DNA of 64,000 nucleotides from a virus: positions 1 to 64,000 of IMG/VR virus record IMGVR_UViG_3300042887_002430; one strand, given 5' to 3'. The stretch's first letter is position 1. Every line of letters begins with the position of its first letter. This document shows, piece by piece, positions 4,052-58,913 of the stretch. A model generated the notes under the pieces. The model did no database searches. It worked only from the letters and a program-made list of their open reading frames with translations, and was not told the DNA's origin. Made by a program: the position numbers and the translations under genes.

Positions 4052-5083
4052 TTACTCTACAACTTCCAAATCTTCTAATTCTGCAGATATTTTGAAGAAA
4101 GCATTAGATTTCTCTTCACATAATTTAAGAATTGCTTCGGCATGGTCTTCAAATTTTCCAGATTGGAATTTTACTTCAGGGTCTCCATAAGAATTCCATG
4201 TTCCACCCTTAACAACACCTAATCCAATAGCAGCATCTAATAATCCACTATATTGTGACATTCCTTCATCATAAGGAACTTCTACTGTAACGGTTTGGAA
4301 AGGTTTTGTAAATCTTGTCTTATATCCTTCTACCTTCATACGGATACCAGTAACAGAATCCTTATCTTTCAATTTTAATTTTGAAATCAATACGATTTGA
4401 GAAGCACAATATTTGATAGATTCCGTAACTACCCATTTACCATTACCAGCCATGATTTGTTCTTGATTAGCAGGATATACTTGTTTTGTAAAGATGATAC
4501 TAATATTCAAATTAGAAATCGTGTTCACAAAAGGTTTTAACATGCTTTTCAATTGTTTAGCCTGTTGACCTTGGTCAGCATTACCATCACCTTTCTTGAA
4601 TTTATCATGTTCTGAATTAGTCATCAACATATCAGCACTATCAATAGCAATGACAACTTTCGGAGCATTTTCAAAATCATCTTCATAATCTTCTTTATAT
4701 CCTTTAATAAAGGTAGAGATGATTTTTGTAACATTATCAATAGTTGTAACCCTAACACAATGATAATGCTCAGATGATGTATCAATGCCTATAGCACCAG
4801 CAAAATCTCTATCAAAGGCATTTTCCGAATCTAATACAAAAATCATAGCACCTTCAGATTGTGCTTGTTTTAATACATTAGCTAATAAAAATGATTTTCC
4901 CGCCCCGGAAGCACCAGCAAATGCGGTAATTCTACCTTGTGGCAAAAATTGATGGAAACTCCCACCAATAATTCTATTGATTGTTACATTCCCACTACCA
5001 AACCAATATCTAGGTGGTGAATCATCTGTTGTGACACCATCCATTTTATTCATTGATTTGTGTAAATTCTTCATAAATTGCAT
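4052..5083 (-). CDS. uvsX: UvsX/RecA-like recombinase (start reassigned to 5083)
   Basis: GASGAGKS, LDSENA, IDS, KTRFTKPF; AGGA RBS before MQFMK. Confidence 0.92.
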   Translation of the reverse strand: MQFMKNLHKSMNKMDGVTTDDSPPRYWFGSGNVTINRIIGGSFHQFLPQGRITAFAGASGAGKSFLLANVLKQAQSEGAMIFVLDSENAFDRDFAGAIGIDTSSEHYHCVRVTTIDNVTKIISTFIKGYKEDYEDDFENAPKVVIAIDSADMLMTNSEHDKFKKGDGNADQGQQAKQLKSMLKPFVNTISNLNISIIFTKQVYPANQEQIMAGNGKWVVTESIKYCASQIVLISKLKLKDKDSVTGIRMKVEGYKTRFTKPFQTVTVEVPYDEGMSQYSGLLDAAIGLGVVKGGTWNSYGDPEVKFQSGKFEDHAEAILKLCEEKSNAFFKISAELEDLEVVE

Positions 5084-5164
5084 ATTATTATTCCTATCAT
5101 TTAGTAAATTAAATAGCATCCTAACCATGAACATTAATGGTTAGGATGCTCTTAACGATTGTGA

Positions 5165-31933: not shown

Positions 31934-32392
31934 CTATGCAAAATGGGGGAAATGGTCATTTATATAATCAATATATTTAAATCCTTTTTCGACCACAAAA
32001 TCGGTAAAATCAAACGTACCATGTCTAATATCATCTGCATTTTTTATAAATTCAGATTGTTTTAACATAGCCAATACAGGATATGATTCCATAAAATCAA
32101 TATGGTACTTAGTACCTCGATGTGCTTCTAACCAAAATATTAAATCGTAATTAACAATGGATTTAATATTCTTATCCAAAATTGTCTCTAACTGTTTCTT
32201 ATTTTTAAATTTTACAATATATGTACCATAATCAGGGGAATTAATCATATATCCTTGGTCAATGGTAAATTCTAATGACTTATCCGGCATAACTGCATAG
32301 TGTATTTTATTCTTATCATATTTTATAAAATCCAACATATCTTGTAGCATATCATTGTCCATCAAATTGGTCACAGGATTATTAAAGTTCAT
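31934..32392 (-). CDS. Hypothetical protein
   Basis: ORF with terminator downstream. Confidence 0.55.
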   Translation of the reverse strand: MNFNNPVTNLMDNDMLQDMLDFIKYDKNKIHYAVMPDKSLEFTIDQGYMINSPDYGTYIVKFKNKKQLETILDKNIKSIVNYDLIFWLEAHRGTKYHIDFMESYPVLAMLKQSEFIKNADDIRHGTFDFTDFVVEKGFKYIDYINDHFPHFA

Positions 32393-32447: not shown

Positions 32448-32660
32448 CTAATTGTCAACAATTATTTTTATATCTTCATCATCAGATATTATATTACAAC
32501 CAATCGGTAAATGAATACCATGAAAATACCATTCCTCTTTTATCTTATATAAGTGCAAAGCATCATTACCATGTAACGTAAATTCAGATAATACGGCATC
32601 TGGATAATGGTTACTATTGACAAATAGTAAGAATTCATCAGTATCACCAGTAAATATCAT
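32448..32660 (-). CDS. Hypothetical protein
   Basis: ORF coupled by ATGA overlap. Confidence 0.5.
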   Translation of the reverse strand: MIFTGDTDEFLLFVNSNHYPDAVLSEFTLHGNDALHLYKIKEEWYFHGIHLPIGCNIISDDEDIKIIVDN

Positions 32661-33043
32661 ATCATTTTAAAGGCTCTAACGTAAAATTGCTTTTTCTTAT
32701 CCCTAGAATTTTGGTAATACATCATACCTTTATAATAAAATGATATGGTTAACCCATAATCGGGGTTAGTATCAGTAACAGTCCAATATTCTTCTTCAAG
32801 ATGCATATCATATCCATCAATCATATCATCCTTAATAATGGCATAATGTTGGAGAATATATTTCATAAAATCTGCATCAGGAACAAACCATTCATTATAA
32901 TCATCAATAATTAAAAATGATTCAAACATTGAAATATCCGAATAGGCTAACTTTTTTTCATATACCTTTGGTGATAATATTAATCGTTTACCATCTGGAA
33001 CTGTAGAAATATGTAAGCCACCTTCTAATATCTCTCCAATCAT
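32657..33043 (-). CDS. Degenerate DUF1566-like protein
   Basis: WFVP, YWTVTD, FYVRAFK. Confidence 0.5.
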   Translation of the reverse strand: MIGEILEGGLHISTVPDGKRLILSPKVYEKKLAYSDISMFESFLIIDDYNEWFVPDADFMKYILQHYAIIKDDMIDGYDMHLEEEYWTVTDTNPDYGLTISFYYKGMMYYQNSRDKKKQFYVRAFKMI

Positions 33044-34827
33044 ATATTATAATCATCATACTTCAATATCATCGGAGGTATACCTAACTCTTCAAATACA
33101 GAATTATACACCTGATTAAAAATATCTAAATCATCAGGATGGAACATAACAGAATCATGTATAGTGATTGCCGGATACTTCTTAACCTTCATAAATCGTC
33201 TAAAAATTCTATTAACAAACAATTCTGATTCTACTTTTTGTAATAATTTAGGCAAATGTGGAACAAAGTCTTGTTTATTTAAATATGATACTAACCCTAC
33301 CATTGTTGGAAATTCTGTAGCTAATTTTGTTTTTAAGTCTTTGAATTGTATATCATTACTGAAGAATGTTTTAAAAACACAACCTTTAGCTCCATCTCTA
33401 TCTTTTTTAATGATAGATGCTATTTCTTCATACAACATACCAGCTTTAGATAATCCAATAAATTTATCTAAATCTTGTTTATTCTCATCAGAATGATTTT
33501 TAGCATATTTTATAGCTTCCATAACATTAGCGAATGGTAACAAAATCTTATCATCATCTTCATGCTTTAACCATTCAACACCGTACATCATTTCAGAAAT
33601 CTGTTTAGGATATTCAATAATCATGGAAAAAATAGCCATTTGAGAATTCTTAGCATCAGCACTAATATATTTTACACCATCAATATTAATGAATTGTCTA
33701 ACCCATGATTTGATATTGGTGAAAATACTATGGAATCGTCCACCAAATTTATCACAAACGTTAAAATAGGTATTACCTTGTTGGATAAATTCTACGGTAT
33801 TAATGAATTCAGCAATCTTTATTTCGTCAGCATCCTTTAATTTTTTCTTTAATCCTTTATCATCACCAAATGATAAATTATAATAAGCATAAGGATTTGA
33901 ATTATAAGAAGAAAGCATTTCAGCAGTGTTCATTCTTTTGAATAATTCAATAGCATCATCAATCATTGGTTTATATTCAGCACTATTCATCTTACGTTTG
34001 TTTCTGATTCTAATCTTATCAGCAGCAAATCTATGTTTTAAACGCCAATCTTGAACATTAAAAATATAATATTGTTTAACATCTATAGTAGATGAATCAG
34101 TAGTGAATAAATGATTAGCTAATTTATAGCTTCTAGCCTTTTTACTATCTTCATAATGATACCATTTATCATCACATAGCAATAATCCAGCATTAATATA
34201 GGCTAATCTATATGATTCAAAAGTATAACCTACCAATTGTTCAATATAATTACTTCTTAACTGTACGAAACTTTTAAAATGATTAGAGAAGAATTCGTTA
34301 TCAGTAATATATACTTTTCTAGTTCTTTTAGTTTTTTGAAACAAATATGTAAATGCTACTAAACCTATGAAAGCCTTAGCAATTTCTAAATTATATTCAA
34401 AATTTTCATCATATTTTTCTTTATAATCCATCATAGCCTTATGAATCATATCATCTGTCAATAGGATAGGAATATATAAAGGTACTCTTTTATCCTCATC
34501 AGACCCTTCTAAAGATTCATATCTAATCTGTGAAGCACATTTCTTTTTTATAAATTTATAAGGTATGACATATTTCTTAGCATTAAATTTTTTAAACTGA
34601 TGTTTCATAGCCCCTACCATAGATTCAGGGCTTCTTTTTTGATAAGGTTCAAAAATTGTTAAATCATCCATAAATCTAAAGTATGAAAGACTGTCAAAGA
34701 ATGTTTGTGTTACAGGGTCATAATATCTAGCATTCTTAATATCATGAAAGCATACAGTCTTGGTAACAGTAGAGAAAACACATCTAAACCGTGAATAATC
34801 ATAGATTTCATTAGCAATAATATTCAT
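33040..34827 (-). CDS. Family A polymerase-fold protein with possible N-terminal winged helix; candidate replication initiator/primase
   Basis: GRFHS, motif A SADAKNSQ, motif B RDGAK..F, LQKVES, motif C TIHDS; no exonuclease domain seen. Confidence 0.7.
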   Translation of the reverse strand: MNIIANEIYDYSRFRCVFSTVTKTVCFHDIKNARYYDPVTQTFFDSLSYFRFMDDLTIFEPYQKRSPESMVGAMKHQFKKFNAKKYVIPYKFIKKKCASQIRYESLEGSDEDKRVPLYIPILLTDDMIHKAMMDYKEKYDENFEYNLEIAKAFIGLVAFTYLFQKTKRTRKVYITDNEFFSNHFKSFVQLRSNYIEQLVGYTFESYRLAYINAGLLLCDDKWYHYEDSKKARSYKLANHLFTTDSSTIDVKQYYIFNVQDWRLKHRFAADKIRIRNKRKMNSAEYKPMIDDAIELFKRMNTAEMLSSYNSNPYAYYNLSFGDDKGLKKKLKDADEIKIAEFINTVEFIQQGNTYFNVCDKFGGRFHSIFTNIKSWVRQFINIDGVKYISADAKNSQMAIFSMIIEYPKQISEMMYGVEWLKHEDDDKILLPFANVMEAIKYAKNHSDENKQDLDKFIGLSKAGMLYEEIASIIKKDRDGAKGCVFKTFFSNDIQFKDLKTKLATEFPTMVGLVSYLNKQDFVPHLPKLLQKVESELFVNRIFRRFMKVKKYPAITIHDSVMFHPDDLDIFNQVYNSVFEELGIPPMILKYDDYNI

Positions 34828-35004
34828 AAAGGAAATATACCATAGAAAAGGTCAAATATTTATAAGCATAATTATACAGAATATTAAAATATTGTCAACT
34901 ATTAAATTGTTAACAGGTAAAAAAAAAAAAAGTCTTGTAAGTCTTTAGGATAGAAAGGATTAAAGATGATAAAGTATTGAAATAATTAAGAATAATTAAA
35001 GAAA

Positions 35005-35083
35005 TAGGATAGTCTTTAGGATATTCATAATTAGGATAGTCTTTAGGATATTCATAATTAGGATAGTCTTTAGGATATTCATA
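35005..35083. repeat. 27-bp tandem repeat x2.9 (iteron-like)
   Basis: TAGGATAGTCTTTAGGATATTCATAAT at 35005, 35032, 35059; partial copy at ~34940. Confidence 0.9.
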
Positions 35084-35444
35084 GAATACAATAATTAAGA
35101 TATGAAGATATGATTTCATAATTACATATATAAAAGATGATTCATAGAATTATAATTTACAATGTAGAAAATCATTATAATGATAATAATAATAGTTAAT
35201 TAAAGAAGATAGTAAAATATCATAATAACAGACGATATGATAAAGAAGAATCAAAGGATTCTCCGCAAGCCCCGTATAATAAGGCATGCTGTGAAACGGC
35301 ATTTCGGGAGCATATGCCAATTTTTACATAAAAAATTAAAAATTGTTGCAATTATGTTAAAATATATGATAGGATATACCGATGATTTTTAGGACTAAAT
35401 ATCATGCAAAAACAAAAATTCAAAACCCTTTAATGAGTATTACT

Positions 35445-38195
35445 ATGACAAAACCTATTGATGTGATTAAAAGAGATGGAACCTTAGAACTGTTGGATAT
35501 TAATAAAATCCATACAGTGTTATCATGGGCATGTGAAGGTTTATCCAATGTTTCAGTATCAGACATTGAGATGAATTCAAAAATTCAATTTTATAATAAA
35601 ATCAAATCGTCCGATATTCATAACACCATGATTAAGGCGGCGGCAGATTTGATTGATGAAGAGTATCCTAATTATCAATATGTCGCCTCCAGACTGTTGT
35701 TATTCTCCTTACGTAAGCAAGTATTAGGACAATACGAGCCTATTCATGTAAAGGACCTATATTTAAGGAATGTTGAACTAGGACTATATGAAGATATAAC
35801 AAATCAATATTCAGATGAAGAATGGGCGGAATTTGATAATATTGTTGACCATGAACGAGATTTTTTAATTGCTTATGCAGGTATGAAGCAATTAGAGGGT
35901 AAGTATCTTGTACAGGATAGAGTAACTAAAAAAATCTTTGAAACGCCACAGTATTCATTTATCATGATTGCTGCTAATGTGTTTATTAATTATCCTAAAG
36001 ATACCAGAATGTCATATGTAAAAAAATTATATGACAACCTTTCAAAATTCAATATTAGTTTACCTACCCCTATTATGGCAGGTGTACGTACACCATCTAA
36101 ACAATATTCATCATGTGTATTATTAGAATGTTCTGATTCTTTAGATAGTATCACTGCTACTACTGGGGCTATCATTAAATATATTTCTCAGAAAGCTGGT
36201 ATTGGTTTAGGCGCAGGTTCTATCCGAGCATTAGGTTCATCTGTCGATAATGGTAGAGCAGAACACACTGGAAACATTCCATTCTTTAAATTATTCGAAG
36301 CTGCAGTAAAATCGTGCTCTCAAGGTTCCTTGAGGGCAGGTTCAGCAACCTTACATACAGTAATTTGGCACTTAGAAATTGAAGACATTTTAGTGTTAAA
36401 AAATAATAAAGGTACTACTGAAAATCGGGTTAGAAAAATTGATTACAGTATTCAATATAATGGATTCATCTTGACCCGTTTATTGAGAGGTGAAAAAATT
36501 ACATTATTCTCACCGCATGATGTTCCAGATTTATATGATGCATTTTTCGATGACCAAGATAAATTTGCCGAACTATATGTCAAATATGAAAATAATAAAC
36601 ACATTCGTAAAAAACGTATTGATGCTAATGAATTGATTACTACATTCTTATTAGAACAATTCGAAACCGGTAGACTATATAATATGTTTACTGACCATGC
36701 AAACACCCATAGTTCATTCTTGGAAGAAGTAGCACCTATAAAAATGTCTAATCTTTGCCAAGAGATTACATTACCTACTAAACCGTTTGTATCGTTAGAC
36801 GATACTAACGGTCAAATAGCATTATGTATCCTAGCAGCTATCAATCTTGGTAATGTTAAACAATTATCAGATATGGAAGAATGGGCTGATATTTGTGTTA
36901 GAACCCTAGATGAACTAATTGATATTCAAGACTATCCCTTAGAAGCTGCTAGAATTTCTACTGTTAATAGACGGTCTTTAGGGGTAGGCGTTATCAATTA
37001 TGCTTATTACCTTGCTAAAAATTCAGCAAAATATGATGAATCTGGTTTCGATTTAACCAATAAAACCTTCGAAGCATACCAATACTATCTATTGAACGCA
37101 TCAGTTAATCTTGCAAAAGAAAAAGGTAAATGTAATTGGTTCTACCAAACAAAATATTCTAAAGGCATTCTTCCTATTGATACCTATAAATCTAATATTG
37201 ATGAATTGGTAGGAAAAGATTTACAAATGGATTGGGAATGGTTAAGAAAAGAGATTCTTACACATGGTCTACGAAACAGTACATTATCATCTTTGATGCC
37301 TAGCGAATGTCAATTATATTCTAATAAATTAAATCTAGCCGATGGTAGACGATTAAATTTCCATGAATTATTAGATGATGTTGGGGTAGATTGGGAAAGT
37401 ATCGAAACGTCTGGAATCCCACAACGATATTCATTCTTGAAACCTATTGTTATTAATACTCAACATGGTCCTAAAGAAGCATTTGAATATTACTATAATG
37501 GCTTTATTGATGTTATTGAATTAGAATTCGATGATGGTGAAACATATGGTTTTACACCTAATCATAAATTATTGGTTCTGCAACAAAATGTATCATTAAT
37601 CAATGATATAGAATATACCAGACATTGGGAAAAGGTGGAAAATCTAACGGATGGTCATTTGATTATTTTCAAATCTGACGACCAACATGAATATGGTGTT
37701 AGAACTATTCGTAAAATTACTCATTCTAAAAATCATACATGGGATATCTCAGTATTAGATGGTGAAGAATATATTTTACCAAATGGTATCATTTCTCATA
37801 ACACATCTTCACAAATCAGTAATGCTACTAATGGTATTGAACCTGTATTATCTACTGTTACCACAAAAGGTTCTAAAAATAGTACAGCTAAACAAGTTGT
37901 ACCAGAAGTAGGAAAATTGAAAAACAAGTATGATTATGCATGGAATATGCGGACTAATGATGGATATATTAAGAATGTAGGCATCATGCAAAAATATATT
38001 GACCAAGCAATATCTGCTAACAAGTATTACAATCCTGAACACTGGCCAGATGGCAAGATTCCTATGGATATCCTCATTAACGACTTTTTGAATTCTTATA
38101 AGTATGGTCATAAAACTGCTTATTATTCAAACACTTACGATGGTAGAGGAGAATCGGAGGATGAAGGATGTGAAGGCGGTGCATGTAAAATATAA
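35445..38195 (+). CDS. nrdA: Class Ia ribonucleotide reductase alpha subunit with mini-intein (start reassigned to 35445)
   Basis: ATP cone VIKRDG, SSCVL, SNLCQEI, NGIEP, C-terminal CEGGACKI. Confidence 0.96.
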   Translation: MTKPIDVIKRDGTLELLDINKIHTVLSWACEGLSNVSVSDIEMNSKIQFYNKIKSSDIHNTMIKAAADLIDEEYPNYQYVASRLLLFSLRKQVLGQYEPIHVKDLYLRNVELGLYEDITNQYSDEEWAEFDNIVDHERDFLIAYAGMKQLEGKYLVQDRVTKKIFETPQYSFIMIAANVFINYPKDTRMSYVKKLYDNLSKFNISLPTPIMAGVRTPSKQYSSCVLLECSDSLDSITATTGAIIKYISQKAGIGLGAGSIRALGSSVDNGRAEHTGNIPFFKLFEAAVKSCSQGSLRAGSATLHTVIWHLEIEDILVLKNNKGTTENRVRKIDYSIQYNGFILTRLLRGEKITLFSPHDVPDLYDAFFDDQDKFAELYVKYENNKHIRKKRIDANELITTFLLEQFETGRLYNMFTDHANTHSSFLEEVAPIKMSNLCQEITLPTKPFVSLDDTNGQIALCILAAINLGNVKQLSDMEEWADICVRTLDELIDIQDYPLEAARISTVNRRSLGVGVINYAYYLAKNSAKYDESGFDLTNKTFEAYQYYLLNASVNLAKEKGKCNWFYQTKYSKGILPIDTYKSNIDELVGKDLQMDWEWLRKEILTHGLRNSTLSSLMPSECQLYSNKLNLADGRRLNFHELLDDVGVDWESIETSGIPQRYSFLKPIVINTQHGPKEAFEYYYNGFIDVIELEFDDGETYGFTPNHKLLVLQQNVSLINDIEYTRHWEKVENLTDGHLIIFKSDDQHEYGVRTIRKITHSKNHTWDISVLDGEEYILPNGIISHNTSSQISNATNGIEPVLSTVTTKGSKNSTAKQVVPEVGKLKNKYDYAWNMRTNDGYIKNVGIMQKYIDQAISANKYYNPEHWPDGKIPMDILINDFLNSYKYGHKTAYYSNTYDGRGESEDEGCEGGACKI
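37308..37802 (+). mobile_element. Mini-intein in NrdA (165 aa)
   Basis: MPSE|CQLYSN...FTPNHKLL...TWDISV...NGIISHN|TSSQ. Confidence 0.9.
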
Positions 38196-40258: not shown

Positions 40259-41224
40259 ATGAAAAAAATTATAGAAAAATATATACCTTTACCATCCTTT
40301 CCTAATGCTAAAGGTTGGTATAGTTTAAAATGTAATGTATGCCACGATTATAAAGTTAGAGCAGGATTTAATTTTACTGATGATAATGTGTCATATCATT
40401 GTTTTAATTGTAATTTTAAAGCATTTTATTTTGTTAATTCACGGGTTAATGATGATTTCAAAAAAGTATTAAATTCGTATCATGTTCCAGAAGATGAGTT
40501 GTTGAAACTATCATTTGTTGCCTTAACCGCAGAACGTCCAACATATAAAAAAGTAGTAAAAAGTGATAACCCATTGGTAGAAATAGATGTTCCTAAATGT
40601 TTTTATAAATTAATATCTGATGGTAGTGACAAACAGTCTAATATTGCTATAGAATATTTAAAAAATCGTGGAATAATAAATAACTATAATTTTTATCTCT
40701 CAAGAGGTAATACCACACAGGATGAAAAATTGTGGGGTAACCGTTTGATAATCCCTTATTATAGGGAAGATAAATTAATCTTTTTTCAAGGTCGGACATT
40801 AAACAATGCAAGTAGAAGATATGTTAATTCAACAGTTGATAATGATGGTATTATTTTATACGGGTATCAAAACTTTCATACCGTATCTAATGACCTTCTT
40901 TTCATTGTAGAGGGTTTTTTTGATGCCTATCATTTGAATGGTGTTGCCATTGTAGGGAATAGTTTAACCGATAAAAAAATTAAAGTTATAAACGAAAGTA
41001 ATAAAAGAAAAATATATGTCCCTGATAGATTCGGGAATGGTAAAGAACCTGCAATAAAAGCTATTGAGGCAGGATGGGAAGTATCTATTCCTGATTGTGG
41101 TAATTGTAAAGATTTAAACGAAGCCATCATTAAGTATGGTCTACTATATGTAAAAAAATCATTAATGGATAATTGTAAAAAAGGTTTTGCAGCTACCATA
41201 ATGGTTAATGCTATGTGCAAATAA
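40259..41224 (+). CDS. gp61-like DNA primase
   Basis: CNVC..HCFNC zinc finger, FFQGR, Toprim VEGFFDA, PDR, KDLNE. Confidence 0.9.
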   Translation: MKKIIEKYIPLPSFPNAKGWYSLKCNVCHDYKVRAGFNFTDDNVSYHCFNCNFKAFYFVNSRVNDDFKKVLNSYHVPEDELLKLSFVALTAERPTYKKVVKSDNPLVEIDVPKCFYKLISDGSDKQSNIAIEYLKNRGIINNYNFYLSRGNTTQDEKLWGNRLIIPYYREDKLIFFQGRTLNNASRRYVNSTVDNDGIILYGYQNFHTVSNDLLFIVEGFFDAYHLNGVAIVGNSLTDKKIKVINESNKRKIYVPDRFGNGKEPAIKAIEAGWEVSIPDCGNCKDLNEAIIKYGLLYVKKSLMDNCKKGFAATIMVNAMCK

Positions 41225-55208: not shown

Positions 55209-58200
55209 ATGACATATATTAGTGCATTTATGCCAAGGGATGAAAAAGGATTTATTACTGAAGATGTGGTATATGTATATGAATGCATTAATCATAAAAA
55301 TATCTTAAAAAAGTATCCGGCAATCTTTGAATATTATACAAAATCAGAACGTGGACAATATACCAGCATCTTTGGGGAAACATTAACAAAGGTTGTCTAT
55401 AGTTCTACTAGAGAATTTAGAATAGCCAAGAAAGAGGCACTAGAAAATGGGGATAAGTTATATGAATCTGATATTCCGCCAGAAACTAAAGTTCTTATGG
55501 AACATTATTATGGTAAACCTGCCCCAGATTTGAATGTATTATTCTATGATATCGAGGTTGATTATGTTTCCAGAAAGTTTAATGATGCCGATATTGTTAC
55601 TATTCGTGCCAAAGGCGATGATGCAACACATAATGAAGAATTAAAATTAATTAGAGAATTAGAGCCGCAGAATAGGGAACTATTTGAATTATATGATGAT
55701 ATGCTCAAACAATGGGTATCATATGAAGATTCAAGATTCTCCTATATGGGCGAAACAGGATTCTCATCACCATTAAATCCTTATGCCCCTATTAATGCTA
55801 TTTCTATTTTCAAACAATGGTTGGGAAAGTCTATTGTATTAGCAGTTCCTCCGAAAGGGTGGGACATATCTGAATTAGACCAATCATTATCAGAATTAGC
55901 AGAAATTAGATTCTTTAAAACCGAAAAAGAATTATTGATGGAATTCCTTTCAGAATTGGAAGATGCTAATGTATTATCTGGCTATAACTCATCATACTTC
56001 GATGACCCATATGTTGCTAAAAGGGTAGAGATGGTATTAGGTGATTATTTCTTCAAGAAATTATCTATGAAAAAGGCAAATCTTGCCCAATTTAGAGAAG
56101 TGTTTGTTAAGGGTAAAAAACAATTACAAGTACAATTAGGTGGTCGTGCACAGTTAGATTATCTGGAATTATTCAAAAAGTTTGAACAGGCTGAAAGACC
56201 GTCCTATAAATTGGAAGCCATTTCTGCAGAAATTCTACCACATCTAACAAAATTAGAATATACCGGAACATTAGAACAATTGTATCATAATGATTTTAAT
56301 CATTTTTTACGATATAACATTCGTGATACTGAAATCCTAAATGGGTTTGAGCAAAAATTGAATTATATTAAACTTGCTAATGATATGATTCATTCTAATA
56401 CCAGTAACTTTAATAATATTTTTGGTACGGTTAGGGTGGTTGATAATTCTATTATTAACTATTGTCACCATGTTAAAAATGTTATTGTTCCTGATAAATG
56501 GGATACTGCGGATGGTAGTATTCAAGGTGCATATGTATTATATCCTCAAAAAGGTATGCATAGATGGATATGTGCTATTGATATCAATAGTTTATATCCT
56601 TCTGCTATGAGAGCTATTAATATTAGTCCAGAAACCATGATTGGACAGTTTATTGATAATATGAAAGCCTGGAAATGTATCAGTGAACGAGTTGAAATCG
56701 ATTTAGCATTCAAATATGAAAATGGTAGTATAGAGGTAAAAACCACGTCAGAATGGATAGAACTATTCTTAGCAAAGAAATGGGCTGTTAGTGGATATGG
56801 TACCGTATATGACCAGAATGAAGAGGGTGTTATCCCATCGTTATTATCATCATGGTATACATTACGTAAAGAATATCAAGCATTGAAAAAGAAATTTGGT
56901 AACATGTGTGATGAATTAAAATTAGAACATGGTACATTGACGGCTAAACAGTTAAAAGAATATGATGCATTGGATGATAATCATAAGAAAGAATATAAGT
57001 TAAAGAATGCTAAACTATCTAAAGAGAATAAAAAACAATATGATGAATATTATGAAGAATCTAAAAAGAATGACCGATTCCAATATATCTATAAGATTTT
57101 GTTGAATTCTACTTATGGGTGTTTAAGTAATTATAATTTTAGATTCTTTAGATTAGAAGCTGGTGAATCGGTAACAGGTACAGGCAGAATGATTCTAAAA
57201 CATCAATGTAGAGAAGTTAATAAAATGTTAGAAAATAATTATGATATTGAGTTTCCTCTATACGAAAGTAAGAAAGTCATTGATAAAATGATTAAGGTTT
57301 ATAATAAAAAAATGGCAGTTATCCATGCTGAAAATAAACCAGAGGTAGCTGAAGATGCTAGTTTGCATCAATATATTGAAACACTTAACCAAGAATATTA
57401 TCATCCATCATTATTAACACATGATATTGCCTTAGATGGACCAGTGTTTAAAGGAAAATTTACTTCTAAATCAGTTATTTACGGTGATAGTGTTGCTGGT
57501 GATACTATAATTTATTTGTCTGATAGATGTGTATTCATTGAAGATTTAATGACTGATGATATTATCTATCGGGAGGGTAAAGAGTATTGCAATTTAAATA
57601 ATGTTCAAGCATTGACCTATGATAAATTATCAGATACTACTACATTTAGAGATATCAAATACGTCATGAGACATAAATGTGAGAAACAAATGTATCGGGT
57701 ATGGACATCTAATAACAGTTATATTGATGTTACCGAAGACCATAGTTTAATGCATTTTGTTAATGGTGTGGTATCAGAAGTTAAACCATTTGAAGATATT
57801 GGAAAATTAATTTGTGTCAACGGTACAGATACTGTTATTGATACCTTAATATTTGATAGTAAAGATACTGCTATGATACAAGTATTTGATATGCTTAATA
57901 ACGGTCAATATGCCACCGTTACCAGCATTGGAGATATGTTTATGGTTAATTCTGCAAATATTAAATCTGAAAGTATTGGTAAGGATTTTAATACTAGTGA
58001 TGTTTATAAAATTGAAAAAATATCTTACGATGGGTATGTTTATGATATTGAAGTAGATGATACACATGTGTTTTATGCTAATAATATATTAGTACATAAT
58101 ACCGATAGTACCTATTTTGTGGTTCCGGCAAAGGATAAAGAAGAAGCTGTGGAAATGTCAGATTTTATTGCAGAACGGGTGAATAAATCCTATCCTAAAT

Positions 58201-58913
58201 TTATGAAACATGCATTTTTATGTCAACCAGTATTTGATAAAATGATTGCATGTGGTCGTGAAATTGTCGGCGATAATTCTATCTTTGTTAATAAAAAACT
58301 TTATACAATTCATGTAGTTGATAATGAGGGAAAGGCGGAAGATAAGATTAAAACAATGGGGTTAGCTATTAAGAAAACTACCTTACCTAAACCTATTGCA
58401 ACAAAATTAACATCATTTGTTAAACGTTTATTAATCGGTGAAGATTGGTCAACTATTTCCCATGATGTTGTTGATTATAAAAAAGAATTGAAGAATTTGG
58501 ATAATTTATTAGAGATGGGTCTCCCGAAAGGTGTGAATGGATTAGAAGATTATTATAAGAAATATTTAGATGATTCTGGTACTAATCTTCCGGGACACGT
58601 AGCAGCATCTATATTCTATAATATTAATTTAAAAGAATATGCAGATTATGATAATGCTCCGATATCATCAGGTAACAAAATTAAGGTATATTATCTTAAA
58701 AAACCGGAAGGACGATTTAAAGCTATAGCATTGCCTACTGATTTGGAAACTGTCCCAGAATGGTTTACTGAGAATTTTATTAATCGGTTAGATGTTGAAT
58801 TACAGATTTCAAAATTAGTAGATGACCCATTAGAGAGTATCCTTAATGCTATTGATTATAAGGTACCTACCCAACAGTTGTTAATGATGGAAGATGCTTT
58901 CGTCTGGGATTGA
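55209..58913 (+). CDS. Family B DNA polymerase (gp43-like) with intein
   Basis: DIE, GYNSSYFD, YNIRD, DINSLYPS, KILLNSTYG, YGD|TDS. Confidence 0.96.
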   Translation: MTYISAFMPRDEKGFITEDVVYVYECINHKNILKKYPAIFEYYTKSERGQYTSIFGETLTKVVYSSTREFRIAKKEALENGDKLYESDIPPETKVLMEHYYGKPAPDLNVLFYDIEVDYVSRKFNDADIVTIRAKGDDATHNEELKLIRELEPQNRELFELYDDMLKQWVSYEDSRFSYMGETGFSSPLNPYAPINAISIFKQWLGKSIVLAVPPKGWDISELDQSLSELAEIRFFKTEKELLMEFLSELEDANVLSGYNSSYFDDPYVAKRVEMVLGDYFFKKLSMKKANLAQFREVFVKGKKQLQVQLGGRAQLDYLELFKKFEQAERPSYKLEAISAEILPHLTKLEYTGTLEQLYHNDFNHFLRYNIRDTEILNGFEQKLNYIKLANDMIHSNTSNFNNIFGTVRVVDNSIINYCHHVKNVIVPDKWDTADGSIQGAYVLYPQKGMHRWICAIDINSLYPSAMRAINISPETMIGQFIDNMKAWKCISERVEIDLAFKYENGSIEVKTTSEWIELFLAKKWAVSGYGTVYDQNEEGVIPSLLSSWYTLRKEYQALKKKFGNMCDELKLEHGTLTAKQLKEYDALDDNHKKEYKLKNAKLSKENKKQYDEYYEESKKNDRFQYIYKILLNSTYGCLSNYNFRFFRLEAGESVTGTGRMILKHQCREVNKMLENNYDIEFPLYESKKVIDKMIKVYNKKMAVIHAENKPEVAEDASLHQYIETLNQEYYHPSLLTHDIALDGPVFKGKFTSKSVIYGDSVAGDTIIYLSDRCVFIEDLMTDDIIYREGKEYCNLNNVQALTYDKLSDTTTFRDIKYVMRHKCEKQMYRVWTSNNSYIDVTEDHSLMHFVNGVVSEVKPFEDIGKLICVNGTDTVIDTLIFDSKDTAMIQVFDMLNNGQYATVTSIGDMFMVNSANIKSESIGKDFNTSDVYKIEKISYDGYVYDIEVDDTHVFYANNILVHNTDSTYFVVPAKDKEEAVEMSDFIAERVNKSYPKFMKHAFLCQPVFDKMIACGREIVGDNSIFVNKKLYTIHVVDNEGKAEDKIKTMGLAIKKTTLPKPIATKLTSFVKRLLIGEDWSTISHDVVDYKKELKNLDNLLEMGLPKGVNGLEDYYKKYLDDSGTNLPGHVAASIFYNINLKEYADYDNAPISSGNKIKVYYLKKPEGRFKAIALPTDLETVPEWFTENFINRLDVELQISKLVDDPLESILNAIDYKVPTQQLLMMEDAFVWD
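57489..58100 (+). mobile_element. Intein at polymerase motif C (204 aa, no intact endonuclease seen)
   Basis: YGD|SVAGDT...VTEDHSL...VYDIEV..HVFYANNILVHN|TDS. Confidence 0.92.

Follow-up and report, generated by a model that had tools for sequence, protein, structure and literature searches.

The locus described here raises the question of why a lake phage that already encodes a T4-type replisome should carry a further polymerase at a divergent gene junction, and whether this enzyme and the repeats beside it form, as originally predicted, a replication origin with its own initiator-primase. The window analysed (64,000 nucleotides, positions 1 to 64,000 of IMG/VR record IMGVR_UViG_3300042887_002430) is part of a 92-kb contig amounting to about 26% of the phage genome. 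In keeping with the T4-like assignment of the original prediction, the contig encodes a PolB (55209-58913; phrog_262, E 1.7e-153), a gp32-like SSB, UvsX, a DnaB-like helicase and a DnaG-like primase, together with UvsW and SbcC-like recombination and repair proteins. Since the phage has a PolB and a primase of its own, the polymerase considered here, hereafter P0001, would be an accessory enzyme. The features of its gene, operon and upstream gap are collected in Table 1.

Table 1. The P0001 gene, its neighbours and the elements of the divergent junction (window positions).
Feature	Position	Strand	Remark
152-aa gene, motif FKNKKQ	31934..32392	-	polymerase operon
Two small ORFs (128 and 70 aa) between polymerase and 152-aa gene	32448..33043	-	
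P0001 gene, 595-aa winged-helix / minimal family-A polymerase	33040..34827	-	open ORF
P0001 thumb remnant, palm and fingers (residues 281-595)	33043-33987	-	
P0001 winged helix (residues ~112-260)	34048-34494	-	
P0001 N-terminal domain (residues 1-110)	34498-34827	-	
TATAAATA, T4 late-promoter-like octamer between -10 and start codon	34857..34864	-	conserved in L006
Sigma-70-type promoter TTGACA-16-TATAAT of polymerase operon	34871..34898	-	12/12 consensus score
Doubtful 69-aa ORF through array, YEYPKDYPN x3	34910..35119	-	called by gene callers in related strains
A13 tract	34919..34931	+	A9 run at matching place in L006
Solitary 13-mer AGTCTTTAGGATA	34940..34952	+	71 bp left of array
Tandem array, 27-bp unit x2.9, 100% identical	35002..35083	+	TRF score 158
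GC-rich island, two hairpins	35245..35320	.	fold z-score only -2.08
TAGGATA at nrdA start	35370..35376	+	AGGA 7 nt before ATG at 35382
nrdA, ribonucleotide reductase large subunit	35382..38195	+	divergent from polymerase gene

An exonuclease-less polymerase preceded by a winged helix

As anticipated from its family A motifs A, B and C, the 595-residue protein yields an AlphaFold2 model of high quality (pLDDT 92.3, pTM 0.86; 136-sequence alignment) whose best Foldseek matches are all PolA. Residues 281-595 superimpose on the Klenow fragment with a Z score of 13.4 (rmsd 4.0, 251 residues aligned), on Pol theta with 12.9 and on T7 DNA polymerase with 12.7, as against 10.5 for yeast mitochondrial RNA polymerase, 8.9 for T7 RNA polymerase and 7.0 for a further RNA polymerase; Pol theta and Pol nu, neither of which proofreads, are both among the close structural neighbours. 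Near-invariant columns of the 136-sequence alignment include R364 in the GGRFHS hairpin, D391 and N394-S395-Q396 in motif A, K481 in motif B, and T555 and H557-D558-S559 in motif C, with D391, D558 and K481 conserved in at least 90% of the sequences. The fingers follow the pattern R477-x3-K481, and among the 21 closest relatives the O-helix has a nearly invariant R477 and an invariant F489. The glutamate that serves as steric gate after motif A is absent from P0001. As modelled, P0001 is a catalytically intact, exonuclease-less polymerase of the DNA Pol I / T7 RNA polymerase superfamily.

In the same model two domains lie ahead of the catalytic part, one at the N-terminus and the other a DNA-binding winged helix. 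The latter resembles the winged helices of Cdc6/ORC, plasmid RepA, TFE-alpha and LexA with Z scores of 5.7-6.6 (6.2 for staphylococcal plasmid RepA). The segment WYHYEDSKKARSYKL, in which the original prediction had seen a winged-helix wing, corresponds to residues 222-236 and forms the loop and second strand of the modelled beta-hairpin wing, the strands of which span residues 216-218 and 232-236. The predicted absence of an exonuclease was likewise borne out, as structure comparison gave no exonuclease-fold match over residues 1-280, and neither a Pfam search nor structure comparison found a nuclease domain in the protein.

Relatives of P0001 and the activity they suggest

P0001 falls outside the usual family models. 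It matched no Pfam family, even at E 10, and nothing in PHROGs or, by sequence, in the PDB when searched alone; the only sub-threshold PDB matches (E 0.3-0.5) were to N4 RNAPII and mitochondrial RNA polymerases, at motifs B and C. A tblastn search of 50,697 phage records returned two weak matches, both to huge uncultured phages, and a scan of bacterial genomes a single distant relative, in a Planctomycetia MAG. In metagenomes the family is large, clustering at 50% identity dividing it into at least 2,689 groups, and the ESM Atlas clusters nearest to P0001 are mostly from Bacteroidota. We are thus dealing with a large family that has neither a Pfam nor a PHROG model, and whose role rests on predictions. 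P0001 is not a canonical DNA polymerase I: the Pfam DNA_pol_A match, the steric-gate Glu, the H-D-E of motif C and the exonuclease domain are all missing.

Profile and motif comparison places P0001 among the TV-Pol / divPolA2-like minimal polymerases; these being its nearest published relatives, it is not a new kind of enzyme. The divPolA2 proteins were described from barbaviruses, ICP1 and Vibrio phage 1.063.O (AUR84708) (Yutin et al. 2024, Virol J 21:200, PMC11348598). The profile of the P0001 family (A2) aligned with an alignment of five divPolA2 proteins at a probability of 97.7% (hhalign, E 2.5e-12, 172 columns over palm and fingers), only the C-terminal halves being aligned. The family HMM matched Barba18A only weakly (E 1.7e-3) and missed ICP1 and 1.063.O, and tblastn with P0001 recovered none of them. 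In BFVD, the viral structures nearest to P0001 are minimal polymerases of 400-450 residues, among which divPolA2 members rank above canonical PolA. Like divPolA2, P0001 is a second, divergent family-A polymerase, devoid of exonuclease, in a PolB-encoding phage; the divPolA2 proteins, in which an N-terminal globular domain replaces the normal thumb, share with the P0001 family a motif C that reads HDS in most members. The link is remote. P0001 is some 165 residues longer at its N-terminus (595 aa, compared with ~430 aa) and has, besides, a further N-terminal domain and a winged helix that can be recognised as such.

The TV-Pol family (Iyer, Abhiman & Aravind 2008, Biol Direct 3:39, PMC2579912) was predicted to consist of primase-polymerases because its members substitute for prim-pol domains beside D5 helicases; they are common in Bacteroidota and phages, are never linked to nuclease domains and in a subset carry an N-terminal globular domain. 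P0001 shares with them the beta-hairpin Arg (R364), the two catalytic Asp residues (D391, D558), the RxxxK of the fingers and the lack of a nuclease. The A2 profile did not match Microcystis phage Ma-LMM01, a named TV-Pol carrier and the sole named TV-Pol record compared. P0001 differs from TV-Pol in its surroundings, since no D5 helicase, integrase, resolvase or transposase gene adjoins its own, the neighbours being nrdA and small ORFs, and in that it is a stable, syntenic phage gene, with a synteny recurring in distant phages, rather than part of a transposon.

The two papers on these relatives disagree as to function, that of 2008 proposing a primase-polymerase and that of 2024 a repair enzyme (PMC2579912, PMC11348598). 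P0001 might accordingly be an accessory DNA polymerase for repair, gap filling or lesion bypass, without any part in initiation. Besides the repair role suggested for divPolA2, its nearest named family, the presence of a replicative PolB, the closeness of Pol theta and Pol nu to the modelled structure and the UvsX, UvsW and SbcC-like genes of the contig fit such a function. A fused winged helix, a consensus early promoter and a conserved divergent position at the head of an operon would all be unexpected of a repair polymerase, and the combination of an HDS motif C with a missing steric gate is unlike known repair PolAs. We consider this function improbable.

The T7-type motif C suggests another possibility, namely that P0001 is a small single-subunit RNA polymerase transcribing a subset of phage genes, its winged helix replacing the promoter-recognition elements of the T7 enzyme. 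HDS occurs in 143 of 156 family members, the steric-gate position lacks Glu, the sub-threshold PDB matches are all to RNA polymerases, and one distant family member matches PF00940 (T7-like RNA polymerase) weakly, below the cut-off. P0001 itself has no PF00940 match, and the HDS motif is the one T7-like character found in it, the position of T7 Y639 being occupied by F489, an invariant Phe; the Z scores given above likewise place the fold nearer to DNA polymerases. Nor does the contig point to a phage-specific transcription system: a k-mer search of the upstream regions of the contig returned sigma-70-like hexamers and TATAAATA-type words only, both enriched upstream of genes, which points to use of the host RNA polymerase. 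It revealed no dispersed phage-specific promoter motif, and the 13-mer AGTCTTTAGGATA is confined to the gap upstream of P0001, where its four exact occurrences in the contig all lie on one strand. A transcriptional role thus appears unlikely.

The divergent junction and its 27-bp array

The P0001 gene heads a leftward operon with a consensus host-type promoter and is transcribed away from nrdA, as the original prediction of diverging transcription and of a promoter proper to the gene had it. A similar promoter, TTGACT-17-TATAAT as read by eye, precedes the gene in a 68%-identical relative (L006). The same divergent layout of ribonucleotide reductase and polymerase genes is found in relatives with 33% identity; altogether, five lineages have the polymerase gene at the head of a divergent junction, the gap measuring 246-554 bp, and in three of these the gene opposite encodes the RNR large subunit. 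In one lineage (L009) a 636-aa ORF upstream of the polymerase gene was considered as a relative of a 637-aa ORF of the window; the two are unrelated, the former being an RNR. Within the operon, the 128- and 70-aa ORFs occur only in this phage and L006. In four other lineages the gene that follows immediately downstream of the polymerase gene is homologous to the 152-aa gene, which is on this account a candidate partner. A model of its product (pLDDT 77) gave no significant fold match (best Z 2.7), SSB and OB-fold chains scoring only at noise level (Z 2.0-2.3).

The gap between the two divergent genes (34828-35381) measures 554 bp, close to the ~550 bp predicted, and no other internal non-coding stretch in the 92-kb contig is as long. 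The A-tract, purine bias and GC-rich hairpins reported for it are all present. On the polymerase strand the A-tract reads as T13 upstream of the -35 hexamer, at the position expected of an UP element. Purines average about 0.60 on the + strand of the gap, and GC content reaches 0.47-0.50 at 35248-35307 against 0.13-0.27 in the surroundings, the stretch from 35264 to 35245 on the - strand being terminator-like. No further copy of the GC-rich island exists in the contig and its interpretation as a repeated element was rejected; an Rfam search over 32-37 kb gave no match, even at E 1.

The array itself, placed 178 bp upstream of the polymerase start codon, was confirmed by TRF, which places it at 35005-35083, as 2.9 copies of a 27-mer. 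Each unit holds two TAGGATA heptamers spaced by 12 and 15 bp, and the six heptamers of the array, as well as the further ones at 34946 and 35370, are where the original prediction placed them. That at 35370 is the ribosome-binding (Shine-Dalgarno) site of nrdA and not an additional repeat copy. The array units were also considered as promoters and rejected, the promoter-like sites of the gap (10) showing no excess over shuffled sequences (7.3 +/- 2.4).

We give little short of an even chance to the array being unrelated to the polymerase. It could be a neutral, hypervariable minisatellite, belong to the regulatory region of the two divergent promoters or lie in a small ORF that contains the repeats; this alternative bears on the array alone and would fit whatever function P0001 has. 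Near-identical strains have two, three, at least four or five units, all perfect copies, and such variation among identical units fits slippage as well as it fits function; the array could just as well be a minisatellite that evolves fast and neutrally. Its period equals nine codons and a 69-aa ORF spans it, with a C-terminus that varies between strains and to that extent speaks against the ORF reading. The unit also matches an inverted segment of nrdA (35659-35681) at 21 of 23 nucleotides (E 0.04), a similarity that hints at a duplicated gene fragment. In addition, the A/T tract has a place of its own as the promoter's putative UP element, and the heptamer at 35370 as a Shine-Dalgarno site. 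Against an unrelated array stand the regular, iteron-like 12/15-bp spacing of seven TAGGATA (array and flank) on one strand and the fact that no other non-coding array of the 92-kb contig reaches a TRF score of 150.

Comparison with other lineages bears on the same point in both directions. A second homologue lineage (G001) has, at the equivalent upstream position, an unrelated array of 9.8 copies of a 30-bp unit, and the two are the only non-coding arrays with TRF scores of at least 150 in about 217 kb surveyed, both less than 200 bp upstream of family genes. By a rough estimate, the chance of both falling in these gaps, if arrays are confined to non-coding DNA, is about 0.04, a modest value. 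In the remaining eight of the ten homologue lineages for which upstream sequence was available, arrays are absent and two-copy repeats occur only as often as expected by chance, and the proposed check of whether homologues always neighbour repeats thus came out negative.

The test of the origin by GC skew, also proposed originally, gave a divided answer: there is a local minimum at 35 kb, but the cumulative minimum of the contig lies at 51,068. GC skew tracks the coding strand (r 0.66) and was rejected as origin evidence for this reason and because the contig is a fragment; with some 26% of the genome in hand, the origin cannot be placed. In ICP1, early theta replication starts "near the 60 kb position" (PMC7145576); the position of the divPolA2 gene varies with the isolate, within 52.7-61.3 kb. 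The agreement is so coarse that we keep it only as a lead.

A possible priming role, and known systems

The function that we favour, tentatively and at rather less than an even chance, is that of a site-specific priming polymerase for the initiation of replication, with the array as the best candidate docking site. The winged helix would dock the enzyme on a specific DNA site, where it would start or extend a short chain to be taken over by the T4-type replisome; the 152-aa operon protein may assist it, as MP assists CCPol (see below). A priming role is supported by the prediction made for TV-Pol, the CCPol-MP precedent, the array of the second lineage, the conserved partner gene and the RNR junction, as well as by the consensus early promoter and the PolB and primase already present. 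An initiation role is weakened by the array-less lineages, the variable copy number, the position of the skew minimum and the repair proposal of Yutin et al. The weakest step is the assignment of the 27-bp array as the docking or start site of P0001, which is doubtful. The PolA fold, the winged helix and the promoter of the original prediction stand; its further step to an origin with an initiator-primase, which the eight array-less lineages and the skew minimum at 51 kb speak against, is plausible but unproven, neither shown nor refuted.

A stronger version, in which P0001 and its 152-aa partner constitute an autonomous origin cassette in large T4-like phages, is in our estimation rather unlikely. 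The enzyme would then recognise the repeats beside its own gene and lay the first primer there, replacing the R-loop route by which host RNA polymerase serves T4. If P0001 does make primers at specific sites, this would account for the start of replication in many large phages with T4-type replisomes and would add a third, family-A, class of primases in phages to DnaG and AEP.

The closest experimental precedent is CCPol, which together with the small protein MP of SCCmec was shown to be a family-A DNA primase (Bebel et al. 2020, eLife, PMC7581432; Rice 2023, PMC10061031). CCPol-MP has no working exonuclease and synthesises primers de novo, with a preference for a site next to its own operon (PMC7581432, PMC10061031), and CCPol itself is close to canonical PolA, in the CHEAP subfamily (PMC10201439). 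Here, too, a small conserved gene, that of the 152-aa protein, travels with the polymerase. MP differs from this protein in having an OB fold, no comparable match having been obtained for the latter.

Phage replication is likewise primed by the products of T7 RNA polymerase, which acts at the primary origin of T7, and of N4 RNAPII, at tandem recognition sites adjoining AT-rich DNA. P0001 is, like them, a single-subunit enzyme of the same superfamily with an HDS motif C, but it has neither the T7-type N-terminal domain nor the specificity loop, in addition to the differences in PF00940, Y639 and fold noted above.

The initiators of known iteron origins (plasmid Rep/RepA_N, lambda O) have no polymerase domain, and the candidate repeats of P0001 are set apart from iterons in that the tandem copies are perfect, their number varies and most relatives lack them. 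If the cassette version holds, P0001 would be origin initiator and polymerase in one, a type still awaiting its first experimental example in phages. What the locus shares with iteron origins is a set of at least three direct repeats, all on one strand (+), next to a winged-helix gene for a putative initiator and beside very AT-rich DNA.

A family-A polymerase with a winged-helix domain

The 595-aa product of the polymerase gene (P0001) had no match in Pfam, PHROGs or the sequences of the PDB, and a word-based search retrieved only six relatives (36-97% identity). An exhaustive profile search returned 2,689 clusters at E <=0.001, most of them proteins of 400-550 aa with the match limited to the C-terminal 250 residues. 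The AlphaFold2 model (136-sequence alignment; pLDDT 92.3, pTM 0.86) bears out the PolA fold of the original prediction: residues 281-595 align structurally with family-A polymerases, at Z scores of 13.4 (Klenow), 12.9 (Pol theta), 12.7 (T7 DNA polymerase), 10.5 (yeast mitochondrial RNA polymerase), 8.9 (T7 RNA polymerase) and 7.0 (N4 RNAPII). As predicted, no exonuclease fold was found in the model, and the peptide described as wing-like forms the wing hairpin of a winged-helix domain. Residues ~112-260 superpose, at the level of fold only, on the winged-helix domains of Cdc6/ORC, staphylococcal plasmid RepA, TFE-alpha and LexA (Z 5.7-6.6).

R364, D391, K481 and D558 occupy near-invariant columns family-wide, and R477 is near-invariant among the closest relatives. 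The steric-gate Glu is missing, the position of T7 Y639/Klenow Y766 is an invariant Phe, and 143 of the 156 family members share the H-D-S motif C of T7-type RNA polymerases. By these positions the active site is mixed in character, and an RNA or a DNA product is not decidable from sequence alone. A role of P0001 in transcription, which the H-D-S motif might bring to mind, is in our estimate unlikely.

The divergent junction and its repeat array

The gap upstream of the polymerase gene, first put at ~550 bp, measures 554 bp, and no other internal intergenic region of the contig is as long; it holds the promoter and the 27-mer array much as described (see table). One element proved to be something else: the TAGGATA copy before nrdA, taken for an additional repeat, is a ribosome-binding site rather than an iteron, since its AGGA sits 7 nt upstream of the nrdA ATG. 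The late-like TATAAATA beside the consensus early promoter is conserved in the 68%-identical relative L006 and suggests that the polymerase gene is expressed both early and late. The A13 tract lies where an UP element would be expected, and L006 carries an A9 run at the corresponding position. The GC-rich island (GC ~0.5 within DNA of ~0.2) has no Rfam match and no second copy within the contig.

Features of the polymerase locus, its homologues and the replication module
Feature	Coordinates	Strand	Remarks
152-aa gene	31934-32392	-	
Polymerase gene	33040-34827	-	595 aa
Gap, window	34828-35381		divergent RNR/polymerase gaps, 269-554 bp
Gap, L009	3477-3745		as above
Gap, L012	3055-3511		as above
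TATAAATA	34857-34864	-	T4-late-promoter-like; between early promoter and polymerase start codon
TTGACA-16-TATAAT	34898-34871	-	perfect promoter
A13 tract			right of promoter; T-run on polymerase gene's strand, upstream of -35
Single AGTCTTTAGGATA			between A13 tract and array
27-mer array			2.9 copies; right of single AGTCTTTAGGATA
69-aa ORF	34910-35119	-	runs through array
Very AT-rich DNA			between array and GC-rich island
GC-rich island	35245-35320		two hairpins (z -2.08); terminator-like site on - strand; directly upstream of nrdA
TAGGATA near nrdA			ribosome-binding site
nrdA	35382-38195	+	
uvsX	4052-5134	-	
DnaG-like primase	40259-41224		
PolB	55209-58913	+	PHROG matches
gp32-like SSB, DnaB-like helicase, SbcC-like nuclease subunit, NrdB			on contig

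The array is hypervariable between strains: one strain with a 100% identical polymerase protein has at least one extra unit, and the ORF calls of related strains give 2, 3, at least 4 and 5 units. The 69-aa ORF would give three copies of YEYPKDYPN flanked by two hydrophobic stretches, and gene callers annotate it in related strains that carry 2 to 5 repeats; because the C-terminal end varies from strain to strain, it is probably not a real gene. We note that one unit (35048-35070) matches a segment within nrdA (35659-35681, codons for EEYPNYQY) in inverted orientation (21/23 nt, E 0.04), which might reflect coincidence, duplication of a gene fragment or RNA pairing between leader and coding region.

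Among homologue loci drawn from IMG/VR, JGI metagenomes and GTDB genomes, the polymerase gene comes first in its operon and borders a divergent junction in five lineages (gap 246-554 bp). In three of the five (this phage, L009-L011 and L012), whose polymerases are ~33% identical, the facing gene encodes the RNR large subunit. An array next to the polymerase gene was found in the window and in G001, a 174-kb relative (polymerase ~33% identical) with a 310-bp array of 9.8 30-bp units in a 440-bp gap, ~130 bp upstream of its polymerase homologue, but not for the other eight lineages, where no arrays and only two-copy repeats were found. The two arrays, alike in layout and unrelated in sequence, are the only non-coding ones with a TRF score >=150 across ~217 kb surveyed. 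By rough estimate, the chance of both falling in these upstream regions is ~5e-4 if they are placed anywhere and ~0.04 if confined to intergenic DNA. The shared divergent junction, the facing RNR gene and the two arrays favor a link between array and polymerase, and the eight lineages devoid of arrays count against it. The link is suggestive, and arrays cannot be obligatory. G001 also encodes a second, more distant polymerase paralogue (G001:C1:92895-93782, E 1.2e-13).

Replication module and candidate origin

The linear viral contig (92,482 bp, GC ~30%), whose first 64 kb make up the window, was scored ~26% complete as a whole by CheckV and is therefore only part of a far larger genome, which at roughly 350 kb is probably that of a jumbo phage. 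It encodes a T4-type replication and recombination set (PolB, gp32-like SSB, UvsX, DnaB-like helicase, DnaG-like primase, SbcC-like nuclease subunit, NrdA and NrdB), and upstream regions of its genes are enriched in TATAAATA words, which makes the label "T4-like" fair for the replication module. The PHROG matches of PolB (1,234 aa) cover residues 18-706 and 963-1223; the intervening ~250 residues are unmatched and may represent an intein or some other insertion. Residues 776-814 of the unusually long NrdA (937 aa) and 225-308 of UvsX both match phrog_18112, a small family annotated "recombinase", and the two genes may share an inserted element such as an intein. The last 959 bp of the contig (91524-92482) are without any ORF >=50 aa.

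Cumulative GC skew shows a local dip at 35 kb, but its minimum on the contig lies at 51,068; skew correlates with coding strand (r 0.66). GC skew cannot place the origin on this contig, because the contig covers only some 25% of the genome. A distant relative, ICP1, provides the sole experimental hint: its early theta origin has been mapped "near the 60 kb position" (PMC7145576), and the position of its divPolA2-type gene varies among isolates within 52.7-61.3 kb, a coarse agreement. What had been observed at this locus, namely the protein, promoter, gap and array, is confirmed; its interpretation as an origin with an initiator-primase is partly supported, the skew minimum elsewhere and the eight lineages devoid of arrays standing against it. 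Tentatively, the most likely function of P0001 is that of an accessory winged-helix family-A polymerase that would carry out site-specific chain initiation for replication. The 27-bp array is a candidate target of P0001, albeit a doubtful one.

Relationship to known polymerase systems

divPolA2 is a second PolA, devoid of thumb and exonuclease and with an uncharacterized N-terminal domain, found in barbaviruses, ICP1 and others (PMC11348598). Plain HMM and tblastn searches barely link it to the P0001 family; profile-profile comparison with an alignment of five divPolA2 proteins from phage records spans palm and fingers (probability 97.7%, E 2.5e-12). The best structural neighbors in BFVD are minimal phage polymerases of 400-450 aa, followed by divPolA2 members, with canonical PolA behind both. 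P0001 also displays all four core defining features of TV-Pol (PMC2579912), although the typical TV-Pol neighbors, a D5 helicase and a resolvase, are absent from its locus and no direct link to a named TV-Pol member was found. On the strength of these similarities we place P0001 in the published divPolA2/TV-Pol group, as a separate branch whose protein is longer and bears a winged helix. The function suggested for divPolA2 was "perhaps repair" (PMC11348598), a role that we think unlikely for P0001.

The 152-aa gene has homologues in L009, L012, L013 and L015 (BLASTP E 1e-5 to 1e-10), where they directly follow the polymerase gene on its downstream side; its product, with the motif FKNKKQ, thus accompanies the polymerase in five lineages. 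Its model (pLDDT 77) gave no fold match, and no family was assigned. This conserved pairing of a polymerase with a small co-travelling protein is reminiscent of CCPol-MP, in which a family-A polymerase is turned into a DNA primase by a small OB-fold partner (PMC7581432, PMC10061031).
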